Shown in pieces: positions 3,670 through 50,314 of a stretch of DNA of 64,000 nt. The notes beneath the pieces are model-generated. The model was given only the letters and a program-made list of their open reading frames with translations. It did not search any database and had not been told where the DNA came from. The stretch lies in NCBI RefSeq assembly GCF_058153355.1, contig NZ_CM177019.1; one strand, 5' to 3'. Within the stretch, counting starts at the first letter, position 1, and every line of letters begins with the position of its first letter. The translations under genes were made by a program, and so were the position numbers.

Positions 3670-4631
3670 TGTCCCTGGCGTGGCCATTATTTCGCGTTAC
3701 GGAGCAGGCAGCGTTGGCTGCCTGGCCGCAAACCGGATGTGGCAACAAAAATAAAATTGATGGCCTGGCGGTCACCGCGATGCGCCAGGCATTAAACGAT
3801 GTCGCTTTTCGTGGGCGAGTGGTCATCGGCGAGGGAGAAATTGACCATGCGCCGATGCTGTGGATTGGCGAAGAGGTGGGCAAAGGCGATGGGCCAGAAG
3901 TCGATATCGCGGTTGATCCCATTGAAGGTACGCGGATGGTGGCGATGGGGCAGAGCAATGCGCTGGCGGTCATGGCTTTCGCCCCTCGAGATAGCCTGTT
4001 ACACGCGCCCGATATGTATATGAAAAAACTGGTTGTTAATCGGCTGGCGGCGGGCGCGATTGATCTGTCTTTGCCTCTGGCGGACAACTTGCGCAACGTG
4101 GCGAAAGCGTTAGGCAAACCGCTGGACAAGCTGCGTATGGTTACGCTGGATAAACCGCGCCTGAGTGCCGCAATTGAGGAAGCGACGCAACTGGGCGTGA
4201 AGGTTTTTGCCCTGCCGGATGGCGATGTCGCCGCCAGCGTGCTGACCTGCTGGCAGGATAATCCTTACGATGTGATGTACACCATCGGCGGTGCGCCAGA
4301 AGGTGTGATTTCTGCCTGTGCCGTTAAAGCATTAGGCGGGGATATGCAGGCCGAGCTGATTGACTTTTGTCAGGCCAAAGGGGATTACACGGAAAATCGG
4401 CAGATTGCAGAGCAGGAACGCCAGCGTTGCAAGGCAATGGGCGTTGACGTTAACCGTGTGTACTCGCTCGATGAACTGGTGAGGGGGAACGATATCCTCT
4501 TTAGCGCTACGGGCGTGACGGGCGGTGAGTTGGTGAACGGTATCCAACAGACGGCGAATGGGGTGCGGACGCAGACATTACTGATCGGCGGCGCGGACCA
4601 AACGTGTAATATAATAGACTCCCTGCATTGA
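3666..4631 (+). CDS. yggF: fructose-1,6-bisphosphatase class II (GlpX paralogue)
   Basis: 321-aa ORF overlapping yggP stop by 4 bp; GlpX-like sequence. Confidence 0.85.
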   Translation: MMSLAWPLFRVTEQAALAAWPQTGCGNKNKIDGLAVTAMRQALNDVAFRGRVVIGEGEIDHAPMLWIGEEVGKGDGPEVDIAVDPIEGTRMVAMGQSNALAVMAFAPRDSLLHAPDMYMKKLVVNRLAAGAIDLSLPLADNLRNVAKALGKPLDKLRMVTLDKPRLSAAIEEATQLGVKVFALPDGDVAASVLTCWQDNPYDVMYTIGGAPEGVISACAVKALGGDMQAELIDFCQAKGDYTENRQIAEQERQRCKAMGVDVNRVYSLDELVRGNDILFSATGVTGGELVNGIQQTANGVRTQTLLIGGADQTCNIIDSLH

Positions 4632-9747: not shown

Positions 9748-10996
<1,249 letters not shown>

Positions 10997-11026
10997 CATG
11001 CCTGCAATCTGGGAAACCGGGGTAGA

Positions 11027-11060
<34 letters not shown>

Positions 11061-13788: not shown

Positions 13789-13955
13789 TACTTGTAGCCC
13801 GACGTATTGGTCGGGCTAATGCCTTTACCCGATATTGCCTCCTTTTTCTGTAATTTTCTGTAAAACCATGACGTAATCACCTATCTTTGCTCGCGGTTTC
13901 ATCAAGGATAGGCTGACTGAAACGGTTAAGCGGACAAGGATGCGGGGGAGCGGGG

Positions 13956-14852
13956 ATGGACATTTTTATTTCGAAAAAGATGCGCAATTTCATTTTATTA
14001 GCGCAAACCAATAATATTGCCCGGGCGGCAGAAAAAATCCATATGACGGCTTCGCCATTTGGCAAAAGCATTGCCGCGCTGGAAGAACAAATTGGCTATA
14101 CGCTATTTACCCGCAAAGATAATAATATCAGCCTCAATAAAGCCGGGCAGGAACTGTATCAAAAACTGTTCCCGGTTTATCAACGGCTTTCTGCGATTGA
14201 TAATGAAATCCATAACTCAGGACGTCGTTCACGAGAAATTGTGATAGGCATAGATAATACTTATCCGACCATTATTTTTGATCAGTTGATTAGTCTCGGA
14301 GATAAGTACGAAGGCGTGACCGCCCAGCCAGTTGAGTTCAGCGAAAACGGCGTTATCGATAATCTTTTTGACCGTCAGTTAGATTTTATAATCTCCCCAC
14401 AGCATGTATCTGCACGAGTTCAGGAACTGGAAAACCTGACTATCAGTGAACTACCACCGCTGCGATTGGGCTTTCTCGTTTCTCGCCGTTATGAAGAGCG
14501 ACAAGAGCAAGAGTTGCTTCAGGAGCTACCCTGGCTACAAATGCGCTTTCAGAACCGGGCCAACTTCGAAGCAATGATTGATGCGAATATGCGTCCTTGT
14601 GGGATCAATCCCACCATTATTTATCGACCTTACAGTTTTATGGCCAAAATCAGCGCCGTGGAGCGCGGACATTTTCTGACGGTGATCCCGCATTTTGCCT
14701 GGCGACTGGTGAATCCGGCAACGCTGAAATATTTTGATGCGCCGCACAGGCCGATGTATATGCAGGAATATCTTTATTCAATCAGAAATCATCGTTATAC
14801 CGCCACGATGCTTCAGCATATTGCTGAAGATCGTGACGGGACGAGTCATTAA
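13956..14852 (+). CDS. ygfI: LysR-family transcriptional regulator
   Basis: 298-aa ORF with N-terminal helix-turn-helix; divergent from the scp operon. Confidence 0.8.
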   Translation: MDIFISKKMRNFILLAQTNNIARAAEKIHMTASPFGKSIAALEEQIGYTLFTRKDNNISLNKAGQELYQKLFPVYQRLSAIDNEIHNSGRRSREIVIGIDNTYPTIIFDQLISLGDKYEGVTAQPVEFSENGVIDNLFDRQLDFIISPQHVSARVQELENLTISELPPLRLGFLVSRRYEERQEQELLQELPWLQMRFQNRANFEAMIDANMRPCGINPTIIYRPYSFMAKISAVERGHFLTVIPHFAWRLVNPATLKYFDAPHRPMYMQEYLYSIRNHRYTATMLQHIAEDRDGTSH

Positions 14853-16327
14853 CCCAGCATCGAGCCGGTTGCAATTAAATTACGGTGTAAATCGAAGACG
14901 TGGCTAAGATCGTGGTGAATATGTCCGCCGGGCGCATTTTCCAGATAGCGATGCAGATAATCCCGATACATAGGATGTGCACAATTATCAATGATGGTGC
15001 GGGCGCGTTGAAGCGGGGAAAGACCACGCAGATCGGCGATCCCTTGTTCGGTGATGATCACTTTGACGCTGTGTTCGCTGTGATCAACATGGCTGCACAT
15101 TGGCACGACGGTTGAGATCTTGCCTTCTTTAGCAATCGACGGGGCCATAAAGATCGACAGATACGCGTTGCGTTCAAAATCACCGCTGCCACCGATGCCG
15201 TTCATCAGATCGACCCCGGCTACGTGCGTTGAGTTGGCATGCCCGTAAATATCAAACTCCAGGCCGACGTTCAGAGCGATGACGCCCAGACGACGGATGA
15301 TTTCCGGGTTATTGGAAATCTCCTGCGGACGCAACACAATGCGGCTGGCAAAGTAATCCATATTGTCGTAAATCTTGCGCAGGGAATCGGCCGAGATAGT
15401 CAGGCTGGAGGCGCTGGCCCCGCTGATTTTGCCCGTTTCCAGTAAATGCACCACCGATTCCTGTAGCACTTCCGAATACATCATGAACGGAGGAATTTCC
15501 GGGTTTTCCCCTAGTCGCGCCATGACTGCATTATTGATATTGCCCACGCCACTTTGCAGCGGCAGAAATTCCGGCGGAATACGCCCATGCGCCATTTCCT
15601 GCAACAAGAACGTGACCACGTTATCGGCAATCTGCTGGCACATGGGATTTTGCTTATCCAGCATATTACCGGCGTCGGGCAAGTTGGTTTCCACGACGGC
15701 GACAATCTTTTTCGGATCGATTTGCACATAGCGGGTACCGACGCGATCCATTGCATGGAAGATCGATACGCTATTGCGCCGCGGTGGCGCGCCAGGAATC
15801 ACAATATCCGCCAGTTCTGCAACGCGCGGATCGTGATAGTGATTGAGTTCAATGATCACTTTCTTCGCCCGCAGCAGCCAGGTCGGCGCATTACCGATCC
15901 CGCTGGTTAACCAGACTCGACCATCCGGTGCCAGTGCCGATGCTTCAATGACGGCAACATCAATTTCGCCGAAGAAACCGTAATTGACCATTTGCGCCAC
16001 TTCGCTCAAATGCAGGTCAACGAAACTCACCGCGCCCTGATTGATCTTTTTACGTAAACCGGACGATGTTTGATATGGCGCACGCCAGGAAACAGCATCG
16101 GCGTCAGAAAGTACATCGTCAGCGGCGGCGCTGATTGACGCCCCCGTCAGTAGGCGGATTTGATACGGCTTTTTGGCCTCATGCTGTTCGTTAGCTCTGC
16201 GGGCAATGGCGGTGGGAAGGGCTTTCGGCGAACCCGCCGGGGTAAAGCCGCTAAATGCCACCATGTCGTTATGCTGGATAATTTCTGCCGCTTCATCGGC
16301 GGTCATCCTTGTCCACTGAGTTTCCAT
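14849..16327 (-). CDS. scpC: propionyl-CoA:succinate CoA transferase
   Basis: 492-aa ORF; recognised YgfH/ScpC. Confidence 0.9.
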   Translation of the reverse strand: METQWTRMTADEAAEIIQHNDMVAFSGFTPAGSPKALPTAIARRANEQHEAKKPYQIRLLTGASISAAADDVLSDADAVSWRAPYQTSSGLRKKINQGAVSFVDLHLSEVAQMVNYGFFGEIDVAVIEASALAPDGRVWLTSGIGNAPTWLLRAKKVIIELNHYHDPRVAELADIVIPGAPPRRNSVSIFHAMDRVGTRYVQIDPKKIVAVVETNLPDAGNMLDKQNPMCQQIADNVVTFLLQEMAHGRIPPEFLPLQSGVGNINNAVMARLGENPEIPPFMMYSEVLQESVVHLLETGKISGASASSLTISADSLRKIYDNMDYFASRIVLRPQEISNNPEIIRRLGVIALNVGLEFDIYGHANSTHVAGVDLMNGIGGSGDFERNAYLSIFMAPSIAKEGKISTVVPMCSHVDHSEHSVKVIITEQGIADLRGLSPLQRARTIIDNCAHPMYRDYLHRYLENAPGGHIHHDLSHVFDLHRNLIATGSMLG

Positions 16328-16350
16328 TTTTACTCCTTCGTTCGCAGGGA

Positions 16351-17136
16351 TTAATGACCAACGAAATTAGGTTTACGTTTTTCGAGGAAAGCGTTCATCC
16401 CTTCCTGGTAATCTTCGCTGTCATAAACCGCGCGGCGCATCCCCTGAATACGTTCAAATTCATCGGAGTTCATGGTGTGCGCTTCGCCCAGTACACGCAG
16501 TTCTTCTTTGATAACGGCAATGGCTAACGGCGCTTTCTCAGAGATGTGGTGCGCCATTTGTAAGGTGAAATCTTCCAGTTCTTCCACTTCCACAACATGA
16601 TTGAGGATGCCGACAGCCAGCGCGCGCTGGGCTGTGATTGGCGAAGCGGTAAAAATCAGCTCTTTGACAATGTGGAAGCCCGCGTCGCGGGTCAGGTTGT
16701 GAATGCCGACCAGGTTATACGGGACGCCGAGGTTTACAGGCGTCATTGAGAAGGTTGAGGTACTGGCGGCGATGATCAGATCGGAACTCATGATCATTTC
16801 AAATGCTCCCCCCCAAACACTACCTTCCACCATCGAAATGATCGGTTTCGGGAATTTTTGGATCATGCGGGTGATTTGACGCAACGGATCATCATAAGAG
16901 AGCGGATCGCGACCGCCAGACGGAAGTTCGTGAATATCGTGACCTGCGGAGAAGACTTTGGATCCACTCGGCGCGCGCAAAATGATACAGCGAATTTCCG
17001 GCCGGTTGAGATCGCTTAATGCCTGCATAAGATCATCAATAAAGACTTTACTTAAGGCATTAAGTTTTCGGCCATAGTTAAACTCAATGACCGCCACTTT
17101 GTTGATAGTGGCAACGTTCACATGCTGATAAGACAT
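16351..17136 (-). CDS. scpB: methylmalonyl-CoA decarboxylase (crotonase fold)
   Basis: Start at 17136 (MSYQHVNVATINKVAVIEF); 261 aa. Confidence 0.88.
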   Translation of the reverse strand: MSYQHVNVATINKVAVIEFNYGRKLNALSKVFIDDLMQALSDLNRPEIRCIILRAPSGSKVFSAGHDIHELPSGGRDPLSYDDPLRQITRMIQKFPKPIISMVEGSVWGGAFEMIMSSDLIIAASTSTFSMTPVNLGVPYNLVGIHNLTRDAGFHIVKELIFTASPITAQRALAVGILNHVVEVEELEDFTLQMAHHISEKAPLAIAVIKEELRVLGEAHTMNSDEFERIQGMRRAVYDSEDYQEGMNAFLEKRKPNFVGH

Positions 17137-17146
17137 AAAAATTCCT

Positions 17147-18142
17147 TTAATCAAAATATTGCGTCTGGATAAATTCACTAAGCTGCCGCAGGCCGGTGCG
17201 CGGTGAGAGCGTATTATTTTTGACCGCTAAAAGCGTCTGGCGGTAATAGCGATCGAAATCTTCATTCGCGAACAGGTGATTCAGTACTTCTTCTTCGGTC
17301 TGCTTACGCAGCCATTCCACCGATTGTTGTTGCCGCACTTGCTGTAAACGACCACTGGCAGTTAGCGCGGTTTTGAAGTCGATGATGGCGTGCCAGATCT
17401 CATCGATTCCACGTTTTTCCAGTGCGCTACAAGTCAGAACTCGTGGCTGCCATTCGTCGTATTTACGTCGCAGAATATGCAGGGCACTCTCGTACATATG
17501 CCGGGCAATGGCGACATTGGTATGGTTATCGCCATCGTCTTTGTTGATAACGATCAGATCTGCCACTTCCATCAGTCCCTTTTTAATCCCCTGCAGATCA
17601 TCGCCGCCACCGGCAATTTGCAACGAGATAAAACAGTCCACCATGCGGGCGACTTCCGTTTCCGACTGTCCGACGCCAACCGTTTCGACAATCACTACGT
17701 CATAACCCGCCGCTTCGCATAACAGCATTAATTCCCGCGCTCGCTGACTGGCACCGCCCAGATGGCTGGAGGATGGTACCGGGCGAATAAACGCCGCCTC
17801 GGCACGCGCCAGGTCATTCATGCGGGTTTTATCCCCGAAAATGCTACCGCCAGTGACCGGGCTGCTGGGATCGACCGCAATAACCGCAACCTTTAGTCCC
17901 TCACGAATCAACAACATGCCAAAGGCTCCAAGAAAGGTACTTTTCCCCGCGCCGGGTGTGCCGGTAACACCCAGTCGCAGGGCGTTACCACAGAACGGCA
18001 TAATGGCATCAAGCAGTTGCGTACTTAGCGCCTGATGACGCGGGTGACGGCTTTCCACCAGCGTCATGGCCTGGGCGAGCGTGGCACGCTCACCCTGACG
18101 TAAGCGGCGAATACTTTCTGCCAGCGTGGCTTCATTAATCAT
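17147..18142 (-). CDS. argK: methylmalonyl-CoA mutase-associated GTPase (MeaB/ArgK)
   Basis: 331-aa ORF with P-loop GTPGAGKST; overlaps scpA stop. Confidence 0.9.
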
Positions 18143-20279
18143 GATGCTGGCTTATCAGATTCAGTACGTCGCGCACGCTGTCGAGCATAGGCGTACCTGG
18201 ACCATAAATCGCCGCCACGCCGCGCTCCTGCAGGAAGGCGTAATCCTGCGGTGGAATGACGCCACCCGCGACCACGAAAATATCTTCGCGATTCCATTTC
18301 TTCAGCGCTTCGACCAGTTCCGGGATCAGCGTTTTATGACCGGCAGCCAGTGAAGATGCGCCCACTATGTGAACGTCGTTTTCTACTGCCAGGCGGGCGA
18401 TCTCTTCAGGTGTAGAGAACATCGGGCTTAAATCTACGTCGAAACCGAGATCGGAATAGGCGCTGGCGATCACTTTCGCGCCGCGATCGTGCCCATCCTG
18501 GCCCATTTTGGCGATCAGAATGCGCGGGCGACGACCATTGTCGGCAAGGAACTGCTCCGTTTGCGCAACAATGGCATCGAACTCGGAGGCCGATTTCTCA
18601 GACTGATGATAGCTTTGCGCAATCACGCCGGTAACACACTGGCTTGGCACCAGATAACGGTCGAAAGCGGCTTCCAGCGCATCGGAAATTTCACCCAGGG
18701 TGGCGCGAACGCGAGCGGCATTAACAGCGGCAGCCAGCAGGTTTTCGTTGTGCTGTGCGGCGTGAGTCAGGGCGTTCAACGCGGCGGTTACGGCGGCATC
18801 ATCACGGGTGGCGCGAATGCGTTCCAGCGAAGCAATTTGCTCGTTACGCACCATCACGTTGTCGATCTCAAGTACATCGGTTTCGTCTTCGTGATCCAGT
18901 TTGTACTTGTTGACACCAACGATGACACGCTTGCCCTGGTCGATCAACGACTGTTCGCGCGCGGAGGCCTCTTCGATCATTCGTTTTGGCAGACCTGCTT
19001 CGATCGCTTTCGCCATGCCACCGGCTTCGTCGATCTGTTGGATAATGGCTCTGGCTTGTTTGACGATTTGATCGGTCAGCGATTCAACGTAATAGGATCC
19101 GGCCAGTGGATCGACGGTGCGGCAGAGTTCTGATTCTTCCTGAATGATGATCTGGGTATTGCGGGCAATGCGTGCTGAGAAATCGGTTGGCAAACCCAGC
19201 GCTTCATCAAAGGCGTTGGTATGCAATGACTGAGTACCGCCCAGCGTTGCAGCCAGTGCTTCAATGGTGGTGCGGATAACGTTGTTATACGGATCCTGTT
19301 CAGTCAGGCTCCAGCCTGAGGTCTGGCAGTGGGTACGCAGCGCCAGTGATTTCGGATCCTGTGCGCCAAATCCACTGACCGCTTCGCTCCATAAATAACG
19401 TGCCGCACGCAACATGGCGACGTTCATAAACAGATCCATGCCAATGCCGAAGAAAAACGACAGGCGAGGAGCAAAGTCATCAATTTTCAGCCCAGCGGAG
19501 ATTGCTGCTTTGATGTACTCAATCCCATCAGCGAGCGTAAATGCTACCTGCTGCACGCAGTTGGCACCCGCTTCACCCATATGGTAACCGCTGATACTGA
19601 TGGTATTAAATCGCGGCATGTTGCCGGAACACCAGGCGATGATGTCTGCGATAATACGCATTGACGGTTTTGGCGGGTAAATATAGGTGTTGCGGCAAAG
19701 ATACTCTTTGAGGATATCGTTCTGAATGGTGCCTGTCAGTTTATCGGGTGTAACACCTTGCTCTTCTGCGGCGACAATATAAAACGCCAGTACTGGTAGT
19801 ACTGCGCCATTCATGGTCATCGAAACCGACATTTTATCCAGCGGGATCTGGTCGAACAGGACTTTCATATCTTCCACGGTGTCGATGGCGACGCCCGCTT
19901 TGCCGACGTCACCCGCAACGCGCGGGTTATCGGAGTCGTAGCCACGGTGGGTGGCAAGGTCAAACGCAACGGAAAGACCTTTTTGCCCGGCGGCCAGGTT
20001 ACGGCGATAAAAAGCGTTAGACTCTTTTGCTGTCGAGAAACCGGCATACTGACGGATAGTCCACGGTTGGGCGGTATACATAGTGGCACGCGGGCCACGA
20101 ACGTAGGGTGGCAAACCAGGAAGGGTACCGGTCACTTCCAGATTATCGAGATCGGCTTCAGTATACAGCGGCTTGATGGCGATCCCTTCTGCGGTTTGCT
20201 GAACCAGCGAGTCGACAGTTTTCTCCCGACGGCTCAATTCCTTGTTGGCAAGCTGTTGCCACTCCTGCACGTTAGACAT
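18135..20279 (-). CDS. scpA: methylmalonyl-CoA mutase (sleeping beauty mutase)
   Basis: Start at 20279 ([14 protein letters not shown]); 714 aa; B12-dependent mutase sequence. Confidence 0.92.
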
Positions 20280-20482
20280 TATTTGCTCCATAAAACGCAA
20301 TCAAAATGAGGGTATTTGCGCTTACGGTGAGCTTTTTACGTGGGTTTGTCGCCAGCAAAAAAAATGCATTCAGACGTCGTTTTTTGCCGCCTGAGATTTG
20401 TCTATTTTGTGATGTGATTCAAGGAATACAAAAAGAACTGGAGGTGATGCCTGGTATGTATTACCAGGCATTATTTGATGGA

Positions 20483-21376
20483 TTATTCCTGACGAAGAAC
20501 TTTGTGACCATAATCGAGCAACGCATCAGTGACTTTACGCATCATGCGGCTTTCAGGAGCAAAGCGGTGCCAGTAGAGCATCCGGCGTTGAAATAGCCCT
20601 GGCGTTAAGTCAATCAGTTCGCCGCTGGCCAGTTCTTTCTCGATTTGCAGATGTGGGATCATACAGCAGGTGGTCCCCTGACGAGCAAGTTGCACGAACG
20701 CTTCTGAAGAATTAACGATATGGCAGGGTACGCTGCCTGGAGGCAGATCAAAGTTTTGCTGCAAAAAGGCCTGGTGCATATCATCAAGATGGTCAAAGGC
20801 GACCACTGGCGCTTTCAGTAATGCCGAACGCGTTACGCCGTTAGGGAAATATTTTTCGGCGAACGGTTTTGAGCTGACGAACAGATAGTCGAGCGCACCG
20901 AGCTTATCGACAAGACAACTCGGTAGCGCCTGATGTTGAATACTCACCGCGCCGACCACTTCGCCGCGACGCAGACGTTCCTGAGTGCGGGTTTCATCTT
21001 CTACCTGCAAGTTGAGGCGGATAGGCGAATCAGCTAACACAGGAGCCAGCGCCGGAAGCAACCACGTCGCCAGACTGTCAGCGTTGACCGCCAGTGAAAG
21101 CAGCAGCGGAGTTGAACCGGTTTGTTCATCGCCCAGCCACTCTTCTTCCAGTAACTCCACCTGGCGTAGCAGTGCCAGCAGTTTTTGCCCTTGTTCCGTC
21201 GGGCGCGGCGGTACGGTACGCACCAACAGCGGCTGCCCGAACATATTTTCCAGTTGCTTAATGCGCTGTGAGACGGCTGATTGTGTAATGCACAGCTTTT
21301 GTGCCGCGCGCTCAAATCCTCGTTCACGTATCACCGCATCCAGTGCCTGTAATGTTCTGTAGTCCGGGCGTTTCAT
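20483..21376 (-). CDS. argP: LysR-family regulator ArgP (IciA)
   Basis: Start at 21376 ([15 protein letters not shown]); 297 aa. Confidence 0.9.
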
Positions 21377-21762: not shown

Positions 21763-21887
21763 TATACTCGTCATACTTCAAGTTGCATGTGCTGCGTCTG
21801 CGTTCGCTCACCCCAGTCACTTACTTCTGTAAGCTCCTGGGGATTCACTCTCTTGTCGCCTCCCTGCAACTCGAATTATTTAGAGTA
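21763..21887. repeat. ERIC element, copy 2 (inverted relative to copy 1)
   Basis: Reverse complement matches 8453-8577 with about 3 mismatches. Confidence 0.85.
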
Positions 21888-21925
21888 TAATGCGAGTGAA
21901 ATTTCATACCACAGGCGAAACGATC

Positions 21926-24229: not shown

Positions 24230-24375
24230 TAGGATGGCGAGGCAGCATAGGGCTACAACGGTAAAGCCCTCACCGAAGCGAGGGCTTGAAGGAGAAGGGT
24301 TATGATGCGACTCGTCATCATACTGATTGTACTGTTACTCATAAGTTTCCCAGCTTATTAACAGTCAGTCACAGG
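24230..24375 (-). ncRNA. sibC: SibC antisense sRNA (antitoxin to ibsC); ends approximate
   Basis: Inferred from the known Sib/Ibs arrangement in which the sRNA fully overlaps the toxin ORF on the opposite strand; boundaries not determinable from sequence alone. Confidence 0.45.
24302..24361 (+). CDS. ibsC: type I toxin IbsC (19-aa hydrophobic peptide)
   Basis: GAAGGAGAAGGG Shine-Dalgarno then ATGATGCGACTCGTCATCATACTGATTGTACTGTTACTCATAAGTTTCCCAGCTTATTAA = MMRLVIILIVLLLISFPAY; too short for the ORF track. Confidence 0.8.
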   Translation: MMRLVIILIVLLLISFPAY

Positions 24376-24461
24376 GGAGGAGCAATCCTCCCTTACCCTT
24401 ACTCACTAAATTAGGTCAAAGAATCAACGATGTCAATCAGGGCGATGCAGGTGTGTCGCCC

Positions 24462-25082: not shown

Positions 25083-25268
25083 AGGGAATCTCCGAGATGC
25101 CGCCGCAGGCTGTAACCCTTGAACCCTTGGTTCAAGGTGAATGTGTCGTCACAGTTTTAAGGCTTCTCGGACGGACCGAGCATGCTCACCAACCGCGGAG
25201 CGCCACATTCTTGTGGTATGAAATATCGGCTCAGGGGACTGGCCCGCTTGCGAACATCTCAGAGAAAT
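25083..25268 (-). ncRNA. ssrS: 6S RNA
   Basis: Reverse complement reads ATTTCTCTGAGATGTTCGCAAGCGGGCCAGTCCCCTGAGCCGATATTTCATACCACAAGAATGTGGCGCTCCGCGG...GGAGATTCCCT, the 6S RNA sequence. Confidence 0.93.
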
Positions 25269-35104: not shown

Positions 35105-35307
35105 AAAGGCGCTTCGGCGCCTTTGACACTGATGTCAAACTCAACATTGCCTGATACACCTCGTTTATCAGGCCTACATAGTCTGTGCAATGTATTGAAT
35201 TTGCACGATTTTGTAGGCTGGATAAGGCGTTCACGCCGCATCCGGCATAATAAAAGCACTTTGTCATCAATAATTTGAAAGGCGCTTCGGCGCCTTTATT
35301 TTTTTAG
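35105..35307. repeat. BIME/REP cluster flanked by two copies of a terminator hairpin
   Basis: AAAGGCGCTTCGGCGCCTTT at 35105-35124 and again at 35277-35296, the second followed by a T-run; REP-like palindromes between them. Confidence 0.7.
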
Positions 35308-38745: not shown

Positions 38746-38776
<31 letters not shown>

Positions 38777-38806
38777 TCTACCCCGGTTTCCCAGATTGCA
38801 GGCATG

Positions 38807-40190
<1,384 letters not shown>

Positions 40191-48888: not shown

Positions 48889-50314
48889 TAATGCCAGTCA
48901 GTTAAGCAACTGACTGGCTCTTTTTCGGGGCTGTGGGGTATTTCCAGGGCCTCTCCTTTACCACTCTCGGGAAGGCCCTTTCCCTTCTTGTCGGTAATTT
49001 CACAAGTTGTCCCATACTTGCAAGATCGCGCATCAGCTCCGGTATACGTCCCGGTGAAGCGCCCTGCAATGTCATCAGCATTCTCATCACCATTCCGCAT
49101 GATTCTGAGAAACTCAGTTGATTCGGCCAGTAACCTTTCAGATGTTCCGCCATTTTAATCATCTGATATCTCACCAGATTATAAGCCAGTAAGACACCCC
49201 ACAGCTCTTGCTCCACAAGCTCCGGCTTTTTACTTCTCAGCGTCAGCCTGCTCAGTTGCATCGTCTGTTTTATCTCCCTGTATCCCAGTTCGATTTCCCA
49301 GCGATGACTGTACAGATCCGCCATTTCTCCTCCGGGGAAGCGCATGGCGTCCGTCATCGACGTCAGCAGATGGCAGACTTTTCCTTTGCGCGTCACGGTC
49401 AGCAGGCGGGCTGTCACTTCATTTCCCAGTCCCGGCCACTTTTTTCGTGCCTGCGGGCTGGTTTTCAGCTTCACCAGATGATCGCCTTTACCCAGTTTTC
49501 TGATCTCTTCATATTGCGCTCCCTTTCTGAGAGGTATCATCCAGTGGCGGTGTTCTCCCGCCAGGCTCCAGGCATTTAACAGTCCCAGTGAGTAATAACC
49601 TTTATCCATTAACGTCAGAGTGTTATCGCCGGTTTGTTCTATAAGTTGCTCAGCAAGCTCATTTTCGCTGTTCTTCATCGTGCCGAAGGCTGCAGCCGTC
49701 AGCAGATGGCTGGTCAGTTCCATCTGGCAGACCATTTTGACCTGCGGGTAGAGCGCCGGGTTCCCGGCATGTGTCTGGCGGGGGAAGGCTGCATCGTTCT
49801 CTGGTGTATCCGGTGTGCGCCAGAACACACCATCGATGGCCAGCAGGGTCAGGCCGCACCAGTGCGGATGCGGCGTGGCGTTATGCCAGAGCTGCGCTGT
49901 TTTCGTGAACACGCGGCGGACAGCCTCACTTCCCAGGCGCTGGCGGGCCTGAATAACGGCACTGGGGGCAACGAAGGGGCGATTGCCCGGCAGCATGATG
50001 TCCAGGCGATTCACAATCTGGTGAAGAGGTTCTTTACGCTCAAGCGCCATGCCAACAATACACCAGACCATCATTTCGAGGGGAAGACGGCGCTTGCGTA
50101 GCGTTACAGTACCTGATTCGGCAAGGCAACGAGAGATGAGTTCGGGGTCGAGGTAATCCCCCAGAGAAGTCAGTGGGTTACGCAGAGAATCGTAACGGGA
50201 TACCAGATCAAGAGCCTGTCCAATGTGCATAAAAAAATCCGGAAACAAGTGAGCGTTTCCGGATTCTTACACAGCCACTGGATCGGTCAACTGATCCTTA
50301 ACTGATCGGCATTA
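48889..50314 (-). mobile_element. IS4 insertion sequence
   Basis: 1426 bp; 18-bp imperfect terminal inverted repeats TAATGCCAGTCAGTTAAG (48889-48906) and CTTAACTGATCGGCATTA (50297-50314); flanked by 12-bp direct repeat CGGCAAATGTCG at 48877-48888 and 50315-50326. Confidence 0.92.
48902..50230 (-). CDS. insG: IS4 transposase
   Basis: Start at ATG 50230 ([14 protein letters not shown]); 442 aa; the ORF-track start at 50248 is not ATG. Confidence 0.9.

Follow-up and report, generated by a model that had tools for sequence, protein, structure and literature searches.

An intact scpA-argK-scpB-scpC gene cluster and its convergent neighbor srsR in Escherichia coli DNA

Results

The scp genes match those of K-12

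We analyzed a 64,000-nucleotide stretch of DNA from contig NZ_CM177019.1 of RefSeq assembly GCF_058153355.1 (the window). The list of open reading frames contained four contiguous genes, scpA, argK, scpB, and scpC, on the minus strand between 14849 and 20279 (Table 1). The junctions are tight. scpA and argK overlap by 8 nt, and the next two gaps are 10 nt and 23 nt and contain ribosome-binding sites. As in the definition of the operon in K-12, the four co-directional genes lie between argP and srsR.

Table 1. Features of the scp region, with predicted products (positions are those of the window)
Feature	Coordinates	Strand	Description	Basis or remarks
srsR (ygfI/dhfA)	13956..14852	+	LysR-type regulator, 298 aa	NF047842; convergent with scpC, 4-nt overlap
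scpC (ygfH)	14849..16327	-	propionyl-CoA:succinate CoA transferase, 492 aa	TIGR03458, NF053853, Pfam
scpB (ygfG)	16351..17136	-	methylmalonyl-CoA decarboxylase, crotonase superfamily, 261 aa	NF008506, 1EF8
argK (meaB/ygfD)	17147..18142	-	G3E GTPase chaperone of the mutase, 331 aa	start overlaps scpA stop by 8 nt
scpA (sbm)	18135..20279	-	adenosylcobalamin-dependent methylmalonyl-CoA mutase, 714 aa	K-12 length, NCBIfam, Pfam, motif
argP-scpA intergenic region	20280..20482	-	presumed scpA promoter and leader, 203 nt	
Conserved dyad	20345..20391	-	GCAAAAAACGA-N12-TTTTTTTTGC then TGGCGACAA	-66 to -112 from scpA ATG
Hairpin	20447..20471	-	10-bp hairpin directly after argP stop	-17.6 kcal/mol, z = -4.5

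We compared the region base by base with K-12 MG1655 (NC_000913.3, 3060850-3066280). Gene order, lengths (2145, 996, 786, and 1479 nt for scpA, argK, scpB, and scpC), overlaps, spacing, ATG starts, and TAA stops are those of b2917-b2920. The neighbors are also the same: argP upstream and, downstream, a convergent srsR followed by yggE. There were no indels, no internal stops, and no frameshifts in the nucleotide alignment. The initial annotation had described four intact genes of the expected lengths, and the reading frames, the K-12 alignment, and the NCBIfam searches all agree with that description.

Nucleotide identity to K-12 was 97.0-98.4% for the scp genes. scpA, argK, scpB, and scpC had 64, 28, 15, and 23 nucleotide differences and 6, 5, 2, and 3 amino acid differences, respectively (16 substitutions in total). 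Most of the nucleotide differences were at third codon positions (56 of 64 in scpA), and dN/dS was 0.040-0.064 across the four genes. All four proteins scored above the cut-offs of their NCBIfam models (three equivalog models and, for ScpC, a subfamily model) and had the expected Pfam architectures.

The GC content of the scp genes was unremarkable (49-54%); only srsR was low (44.8%). Because these scp values are ordinary, we rejected horizontal transfer as judged from base composition. We also rejected an inversion between the two inverted copies of IS621 that bracket the region, since the segment is collinear with K-12.

Based on these results we are nearly certain that this is the canonical scpA-argK-scpB-scpC operon of the E. 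coli chromosome, intact and under purifying selection. Nothing contradicts this identification, and the caveats given below concern function only. The E. coli "sleeping beauty mutase" (Sbm) operon is already well described; every E. coli reference genome carries its annotation, and it has served in the engineering of propionate and 1-propanol production. Finding it here is not new in itself, and the intact operon is a correct landmark for the window.

Predicted properties of the Scp proteins

ScpA scored 1250 bits against the NF006944 equivalog model (cut-off 876) and contains PF01642 (782 bits) and PF02310. It aligns end to end with the structures of human MMUT and P. shermanii MutB. The alignment to human MMUT covers residues 6-707 (E = 1e-277). 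The DxHxxG motif for B12 binding is conserved, as DGHDRG at residues 595-600. With its TIM barrel, C-terminal B12 domain, and score above cut-off, ScpA belongs to the methylmalonyl-CoA mutase family. At 97.0% nucleotide identity, 6 of its 714 residues differ from K-12, none of them in the motifs checked. Three of the substitutions (V638I, G663N, and C668F) map to a B12-domain loop that is variable, and strain R32_14_1F has them too. A longer reading frame could start from a TTG at 20300, but the start common across genera is the ATG at 20279. The K-12 mutase interconverts succinyl-CoA and methylmalonyl-CoA in a B12-dependent reaction (PMC3850637, PMC5512728), and by analogy the ScpA allele in the window would do so as well.

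ArgK scored 487 bits against the NF006958 equivalog model (cut-off 329) and is identical to PDB 2P67 at 326 of 331 positions. It has a P-loop (GTPGAGKS, residues 61-68) and an NKDD motif (200-203). It aligns with MeaB of Methylorubrum extorquens and human MMAA, with which it has the P-loop and, apart from the substitution in switch I described below, the switch motifs in common. The substitutions E72G, L102F, and G126S define a rare allele found in only 2 public contigs. L102F falls in the switch-I motif GGSILGDKTRM, and G126S changes the SSGxLGG motif from SSGHLGG to SSSHLGG. Positions 102 and 126 are conserved in YgfD, MeaB, Rv1496, and nearly all of 10 related species checked, among which E. 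albertii has Cys at 126. Since L102F and G126S alter family-conserved positions, chaperone activity of this allele is not guaranteed.

ScpB scored 485 bits against NF008506 (cut-off 257) and matches PDB 1EF8 at 259 of 261 positions, including His66 and Tyr140. The crotonase fold, these two residues, and the score place it in the ScpB/YgfG decarboxylase family. Its reading frame could also start further upstream, from a GTG at 17178, but the ATG at 17136, preceded by an AAGGAA ribosome-binding site, matches both K-12 and 1EF8. ScpC scored 755 bits against TIGR03458 (cut-off 659) and 602 against NF053853 (cut-off 500). It contains PF02550 and PF13336, and its closest solved relatives are 2NVV and AarC (4EU3). 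With both domains and scores above cut-off, ScpC is predicted to be a succinate CoA transferase of the YgfH subfamily.

The argP-scpA spacer contains a conserved dyad

The tight packing of the genes indicates a single transcript of all four, which would start in the spacer between argP and scpA. A consensus scan and manual inspection of hexamers in 20280-20482 gave no convincing -35/-10 pair for sigma-70. The sole promoter-like match (TGGTCA-17-AATAAT at 20510-20482, 9/12) straddles the argP stop codon. An E-sigmaS ChIP-seq peak has been assigned to the scpA promoter (PMC4447067), and this peak maps to about 20402-20551 of the window. A search of the region upstream of scpA against Rfam at permissive thresholds found no cobalamin riboswitch and nothing else credible.

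We found that the last ~155 nt of the spacer hardly vary from one E. coli strain to another and that blocks of them are conserved across genera. The hairpin that follows argP is likely a terminator or insulator for argP; it has a compensatory G-C to A-T change between the window and K-12/JJ1886. Closer to scpA, the dyad itself lies 76-108 nt upstream of the gene and is conserved across genera in the alignment. In 41 of 48 related loci, TTTTTGCNNGCGAC is present a single time, and in each of these it lies upstream of scpA. The dyad is a candidate operator.

We rejected a conserved terminator or attenuator in the leader because the hairpin and U-run are uneven across genera, and a DNA dyad fits better. 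The hairpin and U-run are strong in Kosakonia (z = -5.6 and -3.75), weak in the window (z = -1.6), Citrobacter, and Klebsiella, and absent in Yersinia.

srsR is linked to the scp genes but is not divergent from them

The initial annotation, given for 14849-20279, had described ygfI (srsR) as a divergent LysR regulator. We found instead that srsR lies outside that interval, at 13956-14852, and meets scpC tail to tail at the 3' end of the operon. The gene upstream of scpA is argP, which encodes another LysR-family member and is on the same strand as scpA. In the classical layout a LysR regulator is divergent from its target and the two have a common intergenic region; srsR is ~5.4 kb from the scpA promoter. 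SrsR scored 635 bits against NF047842 (cut-off 425). The protein is identical to that of K-12, and the 18 differences in the gene are all synonymous.

The linkage of srsR to the scp genes is conserved. Of the related loci, 47 are long enough to include the pair, and in every one of them srsR adjoins scpC convergently. These loci represent at least 7 flanking contexts, including those of Yersinia, Kosakonia, the Sodalis group, Superficieibacter, and strain RU39B. In Yersinia, yniA-like and yniB-like genes flank the five genes exactly. srsR is the fifth member of a conserved module with scpA-argK-scpB-scpC, and this conserved synteny argues for a functional link.

Discussion

Pathway and possible physiological role

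In the biochemistry established for this operon, ScpC moves CoA from propionyl-CoA to succinate, generating succinyl-CoA. ScpA, an adenosylcobalamin enzyme, rearranges succinyl-CoA to methylmalonyl-CoA; its GTPase chaperone, ArgK/MeaB, protects it and gates the loading of the cofactor. ScpB then decarboxylates methylmalonyl-CoA to propionyl-CoA, for a net conversion of succinate to propionate and CO2. This scheme is from Haller et al. 2000, as cited in PMC3850637, and from the structures 1EF8 and 2P67. From the literature we infer that the operon in the window would have these enzymatic activities, B12 dependence, and low expression.

The initial annotation called this a B12-dependent succinate-to-propionate pathway that is normally silent. 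The biochemistry agrees with published work (PMC3850637, PMC5512728). However, whether the pathway is complete is disputed: Gonzalez-Garcia et al. consider it to be missing a methylmalonyl-CoA epimerase (PMC5512728). Published descriptions of the operon as silent or barely expressed (PMC3850637, PMC5512728) support the second part of the claim, with the qualification of the E-sigmaS peak. Since E. coli lacks de novo B12 synthesis, the mutase is inactive unless the cofactor is supplied (PMC3850637).

By themselves the four enzymes leave the cycle stereochemically open, so the operon might not serve fermentation of succinate to propionate. It might instead handle propionyl- and methylmalonyl-CoA from catabolism of amino acids (Thr, Ile) or odd-chain compounds, a role that we consider possible but doubtful. 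Consistent with such a role, glucose yielded propionate only with the addition of a heterologous epimerase, the operon raised degradation of amino acids to propionate in rich medium, and it enabled isoleucine degradation (all PMC5512728). In addition, none of the 48 loci has an epimerase gene in the five-gene module. On the other hand, others have obtained propionate or 1-propanol with the native genes and no additional epimerase (PMC3850637), and the sequence gives no hint of the direction of flux.

Possible control of the scp operon by SrsR

SrsR might be a dedicated regulator of the scp genes, even though srsR is convergent with them, acting at the dyad upstream of scpA and responding to an effector that laboratory media lack. 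Absence of the effector would explain the "sleep" of the operon. We put this forward tentatively and think it rather unlikely. More tentative still is the broader proposal that the conserved, horizontally mobile unit is the five-gene module, and that SrsR is the missing switch at the dyad GCAAAAAAYGA-N12-TTTTTTGC then TGGCGACA, with an effector that was not in the published binding assays.

The linkage in all 47 loci despite differing flanking genes, the block in Yersinia, and a dyad that is conserved and unique within each locus are consistent with regulation by SrsR. Several published SrsR boxes (e.g., TCcatTTTTGC and TCActTTTTGC) have the form TC-N3-TTTTGC. One arm of the dyad, TCGTTTTTTGC (plus strand, 20377-20387), fits this form, and in Kosakonia both arms do. 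Genomes of the ST131 type, which lack scp, carry nonsense mutations in srsR (S92* and W193* in JJ1886), and 552 genomes match the 81-nt srsR S92* allele exactly. Finally, ygfI is reported to be induced by threonine, a source of propionyl-CoA (PMC9068703); the supplement to that paper has no scp entries.

In contrast, binding experiments do not point to scpA. gSELEX with purified SrsR identified ten loci, none of them scp (PMC9181523), and ChIP-exo in glucose M9 identified only dhaK and mdtL (PMC8464067 supplement). By the measure of experimentally detected binding at its promoter, scpA is not in the SrsR regulon. The TC-N3-TTTTGC match is also post hoc: the window contains 5 matches against 4.3 expected by chance, with a probability of only about 0.014 that one falls in the 203-nt spacer. 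Allowing up to 2 mismatches to the SrsR box TCAGATTTTGC, we found no match in the spacer (the best was 8/11), and the count across the window equals that expected by chance. B2 strains of the ST73 and ST95 types have lost scp but retain an intact srsR, which means that SrsR either has other roles or has had too little time to decay. We rejected decay of srsR together with scp throughout B2, since it is limited to the ST131 type; srsR is intact in the ST73 type, the ST95 type, and strain HH45. The invariant linkage of srsR in unrelated contexts is a testable lead on how scp is switched on.

Distribution and loss of the operon

The same four genes are present in the same order in 48 loci from species of Enterobacterales. 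Of 5426 complete E. coli genomes, 5425 match the scp locus and 4273-4282 carry most of the operon. Intact scp is thus the majority state (~79%) and is not universal. About one fifth of the genomes (~21%, B2 type) have a ~4.3 kb deletion that leaves the 5' end of scpA and the 3' end of scpC, and strain MB51 has an independent, IS1-mediated deletion.

It is very unlikely that the operon is a decaying relic, cryptic, no longer used, and heading for loss: the reports of silence or poor expression (PMC3850637, PMC5512728), the lack of a good sigma-70 promoter, both kinds of deletion, and the rare ArgK allele with substitutions at conserved positions would fit, but dN/dS in all four genes (0.04-0.06) is at the low level of ordinary housekeeping genes, most E. 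coli genomes and many genera have the genes intact, conservation of the non-coding blocks upstream far exceeds what neutrality predicts, and an E-sigmaS ChIP peak lies at the scpA promoter (PMC4447067). Taken with the conservation of elements upstream, the strong purifying selection is an argument that the "sleeping" operon has a use in some natural setting.

Comparison with known systems

The locus in the window is the undeleted state of that in the B2 phylogroup (JJ1886/ST131, clone D i14, and APEC O1). The B2 locus is at the same argP-srsR site and has a conserved upstream spacer, but ~4.3 kb has been lost, and 927 bp of scpA and 153 bp of scpC remain as pseudogene fragments.

In the human MMUT/MMAA and M. 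extorquens MCM/MeaB systems, the mutase acts with an epimerase and a carboxylase and feeds propionate catabolism into the TCA cycle. In contrast, the scp operon has no epimerase and ties its mutase to a crotonase-type decarboxylase and a CoA transferase.

The scp operon is intact

We found that the scp operon is complete, as the initial annotation had claimed. Four contiguous minus-strand reading frames in the six-frame ORF list occupy exactly 14849-20279, and the segment falls in the annotated scpA-meaB-scpB-scpC locus (megablast, 5,426 complete E. coli genomes). Each gene was aligned nucleotide by nucleotide to its counterpart in K-12 MG1655 (NC_000913.3 3060850-3066280). Gene lengths, ATG starts, and TAA stops were the same for all four genes, and the alignment, which was the proposed check for frameshifts, contained no indels or internal stops in any of them.

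The scpB and scpA reading frames can be mechanically extended to a GTG at 17178 and a TTG at 20300, respectively. K-12 uses the same ATG starts that we counted from. The 1EF8 crystal sequence concurs with the scpB start, and orthologues from 19 further species share the scpA start; in several of these species in-frame stops lie shortly before that ATG.

Nucleotide identity to K-12 was 97.0% for scpA (6 amino-acid differences; Nei-Gojobori dN/dS 0.040), 97.2% for argK (5; 0.064), 98.1% for scpB (2; 0.043), and 98.4% for scpC (3; 0.044). Third codon positions took the vast majority of substitutions in the annotated frames (e.g., 56/64 in scpA). The low dN/dS and third-position bias indicate that the four frames are under strong purifying selection, with no decay. 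The scpA and argK genes overlap by 8 nt, and gaps of 10 nt (with AAGGAA) and 23 nt (with AAGGAG) separate argK from scpB and scpB from scpC. These junctions indicate a single, translationally coupled transcript. The operon is an already known feature, of low interest here.

Features of the window, with positions and strands
Feature	Position	Strand	Details
IS621-family (IS110-like) copy 1	9775-11052	plus	326-aa transposase
srsR (formerly ygfI)	13956-14852	plus	downstream of, and convergent with, scpC
scpC	14849-16327	minus	492 aa; six-frame ORF list
scpB	16351-17136	minus	261 aa from ATG; six-frame ORF list
argK/meaB	17147-18142	minus	331 aa; six-frame ORF list
argK codons 72, 102, 126	17765-17929		E72G, L102F, G126S; rare ArgK/MeaB allele
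scpA	18135-20279	minus	714 aa from ATG; six-frame ORF list
10-bp hairpin	20447-20471	minus	directly after argP; z = -4.5
argP	20483-21376	minus	same strand as and upstream of scpA, then 203-nt spacer
SibC antitoxin RNA	24286-24436		Rfam
6S RNA	25085-25268		Rfam
IS621-family (IS110-like) copy 2	38751-40028	minus	326-aa transposase
naRNA4/REP-derived element	40030-40107		Rfam; directly abuts IS621 copy 2
IS4 insertion	48889-50314		1426 bp; between lysS and idi; transposase ORF listed as 448 aa

A five-gene unit that includes srsR

The initial annotation was correct about the identity of the operon but not about the position and orientation of the LysR gene ygfI (srsR), which it had called divergent. 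Upstream of scpA lies argP; srsR is at the other end, where its reading frame and that of scpC share a 4-nt overlap.

Using ScpB to scan one genome per species, we obtained 48 loci, from Escherichia, Citrobacter, Salmonella arizonae/diarizonae, the Klebsiella oxytoca group, Yokenella, Kosakonia, Yersinia, Sodalis-like bacteria, and others. The order scpA-argK-scpB-scpC was identical in all 48, and an srsR orthologue (58-100% identity) was directly convergent to scpC in every locus that extended far enough (47/47). The flanks of the module cluster into at least seven unrelated contexts. Flanking argP and yggE are found only in the Escherichia/Citrobacter/Klebsiella/Salmonella group, and in Yersinia a fructosamine-kinase-family gene and a YniB-like gene, which are neighbours in K-12, exactly border the five-gene module. 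Because the convergent srsR is kept across these contexts, we infer that the conserved unit is five genes, scpA-argK-scpB-scpC plus srsR. The synteny makes a good comparative case that srsR and scp are functionally linked; it is silent on mechanism.

Conserved sequences upstream of scpA

A consensus scan found no sigma-70-like promoter within the argP-scpA spacer (20280-20482); the only promoter-like match, TGGTCA-17-AATAAT (20510-20482), straddles the argP stop. The scpA upstream region matched no Rfam family, specifically no cobalamin riboswitch. The argP-proximal hairpin differs from that of K-12 by a compensated base-pair change and is probably the argP terminator. An E-sigmaS ChIP-seq peak published as that of scpA (PMC4447067) converts to approximately 20402-20551, using a 1978-nt offset taken from sibC in the same table, and spans the end of argP and the first conserved block of the spacer.

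The last ~155 nt before the scpA ATG had 2-3 variable sites among five divergent E. coli strains, compared to a dS of ~0.1 in the flanking genes. In a cross-genus alignment this region splits into conserved blocks. The strongest, TTTTTGCNNGCGAC, is present in 41 of the 48 loci, exactly once per ~20-kb locus and always at 80-120 nt upstream of scpA; with GCAAAAAAYGA it forms a dyad (20355-20387). One arm of the dyad, read on the opposite strand as TCGTTTTTTGC, matches the TC-N3-TTTTGC pattern that several published SrsR boxes share (PMC9181523); in Kosakonia both arms fit. This likeness is a post hoc match of only weak significance, given 5 matches observed in the window versus 4.3 expected by chance and a chance of ~0.014 for a match in the spacer.

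SrsR may be the cognate switch of the scp operon, working at this dyad, and the invariant srsR-scp synteny supports that notion. Two genome-wide binding surveys, both negative for scpA, speak against it: it was not among the ten SrsR loci from gSELEX, which include yfdO/yfdP, fucA/fucP, and paaZ/paaA (PMC9181523), and ChIP-exo in glucose minimal medium placed SrsR at dhaK and mdtL only (PMC8464067 supplement; PMC9068703).

In two Kosakonia loci the dyad region (L030 6740-6790; L035 6737-6785) has a strong terminator-like hairpin with a U-run (z = -5.6 and -3.75); the E. coli counterpart is weak (z = -1.6). A separate block distinct from the dyad, CTGTnAnnnnCTGTAAAA (13840-13875), precedes the srsR start by ~90-115 nt. 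It is kept in Escherichia, Citrobacter, Salmonella, Klebsiella, Yokenella, and Superficieibacter (comparison loci L008, L010, L011, L019, L026, L028, L033) and is a possible promoter or operator of srsR.

Loss of the operon in E. coli

The locus was matched in 5,425/5,426 complete E. coli genomes, and most of scp was present in only 4,273-4,282 (79%). The remaining ~21% are of B2 type and have lost ~4.3 kb, from the 3' part of scpA through argK and scpB to the 5' part of scpC; 927 bp of scpA and 153 bp of scpC remain. Examples are ST131 JJ1886 (locus L006, 2108-4056), clone D i14, and APEC O1; scp losses are also seen in loci L055, L056, L057, and L058. The JJ1886 srsR has the nonsense change S92* plus W193*. 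S92* is found in ST131-type genomes (81-nt allele exact in 552 genomes), and srsR is still intact in other B2 lineages. Strain MB51 has a separate, independent IS1-mediated deletion from srsR into scpA.

Other differences from K-12

The two IS621 copies are 100% identical, inverted relative to each other, and each within a REP/BIME element. They flank 27.7 kb holding the scp operon. IS621 is known for bridge-RNA-guided recombination. The segment between the copies is collinear with K-12, with no inversion. The IS4 insertion, absent between lysS and idi in K-12, has a 12-bp target duplication (GGCAAATGTCG region). REP/BIME-type repeats at 21763-21888 and 35125-35297 are unlike K-12. The former is a copy, 126 bp long, of the repeat in the K-12 fbaA-pgk spacer, inserted upstream of rpiA, between that gene and the yqfE remnant; the ygfF-gcvP spacer is replaced relative to K-12 and includes a match to Rfam ES036 (35170-35212). 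Outside positions 1-436 the window is collinear with K-12. Those first 436 bases show no match to the cmtB-tktA spacer of K-12, which suggests that the left edge is strain-specific DNA.

The Scp proteins and known enzymes

We take the pathway from established knowledge of the E. coli enzymes. As relayed from Haller et al. 2000 in PMC3850637, and in PMC5512728, ScpC would convert succinate and propionyl-CoA to succinyl-CoA, ScpA with adenosylcobalamin, helped by the ArgK GTPase, would convert succinyl-CoA to methylmalonyl-CoA, and ScpB would decarboxylate this to propionyl-CoA. Expression is described as very low, with the mutase inactive unless B12 is supplied (PMC3850637), and one group required an added epimerase for the cycle to run from glucose (PMC5512728).

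The ArgK substitutions are relative to K-12, the two closest genomes, and ten related species compared. L102 sits in the GGSILGDKTRM motif, identical across YgfD, MeaB, and M. tuberculosis Rv1496, and G126 is part of the conserved SSGxLGG motif. The exact ArgK protein is public but rare (2 contigs); exact ScpA and ScpC are each in at least 1000 contigs. L102F, G126S, and E72G may impair the chaperone.

All four proteins scored above the curated NCBIfam cut-offs (methylmalonyl-CoA mutase, MeaB, methylmalonyl-CoA decarboxylase, and YgfH-type succinate CoA transferase), with the expected Pfam architectures. ScpA has the DxHxxG B12-binding motif (residues 595-600), and its alignments with human MMUT and with Propionibacterium MutB are full-length. 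ScpB, with His66 and Tyr140, is identical to PDB 1EF8 at 259/261 residues, and ArgK, with its P-loop and NKDD motif, to PDB 2P67 at 326/331. The nearest solved relatives of ScpC are 2NVV and AarC.
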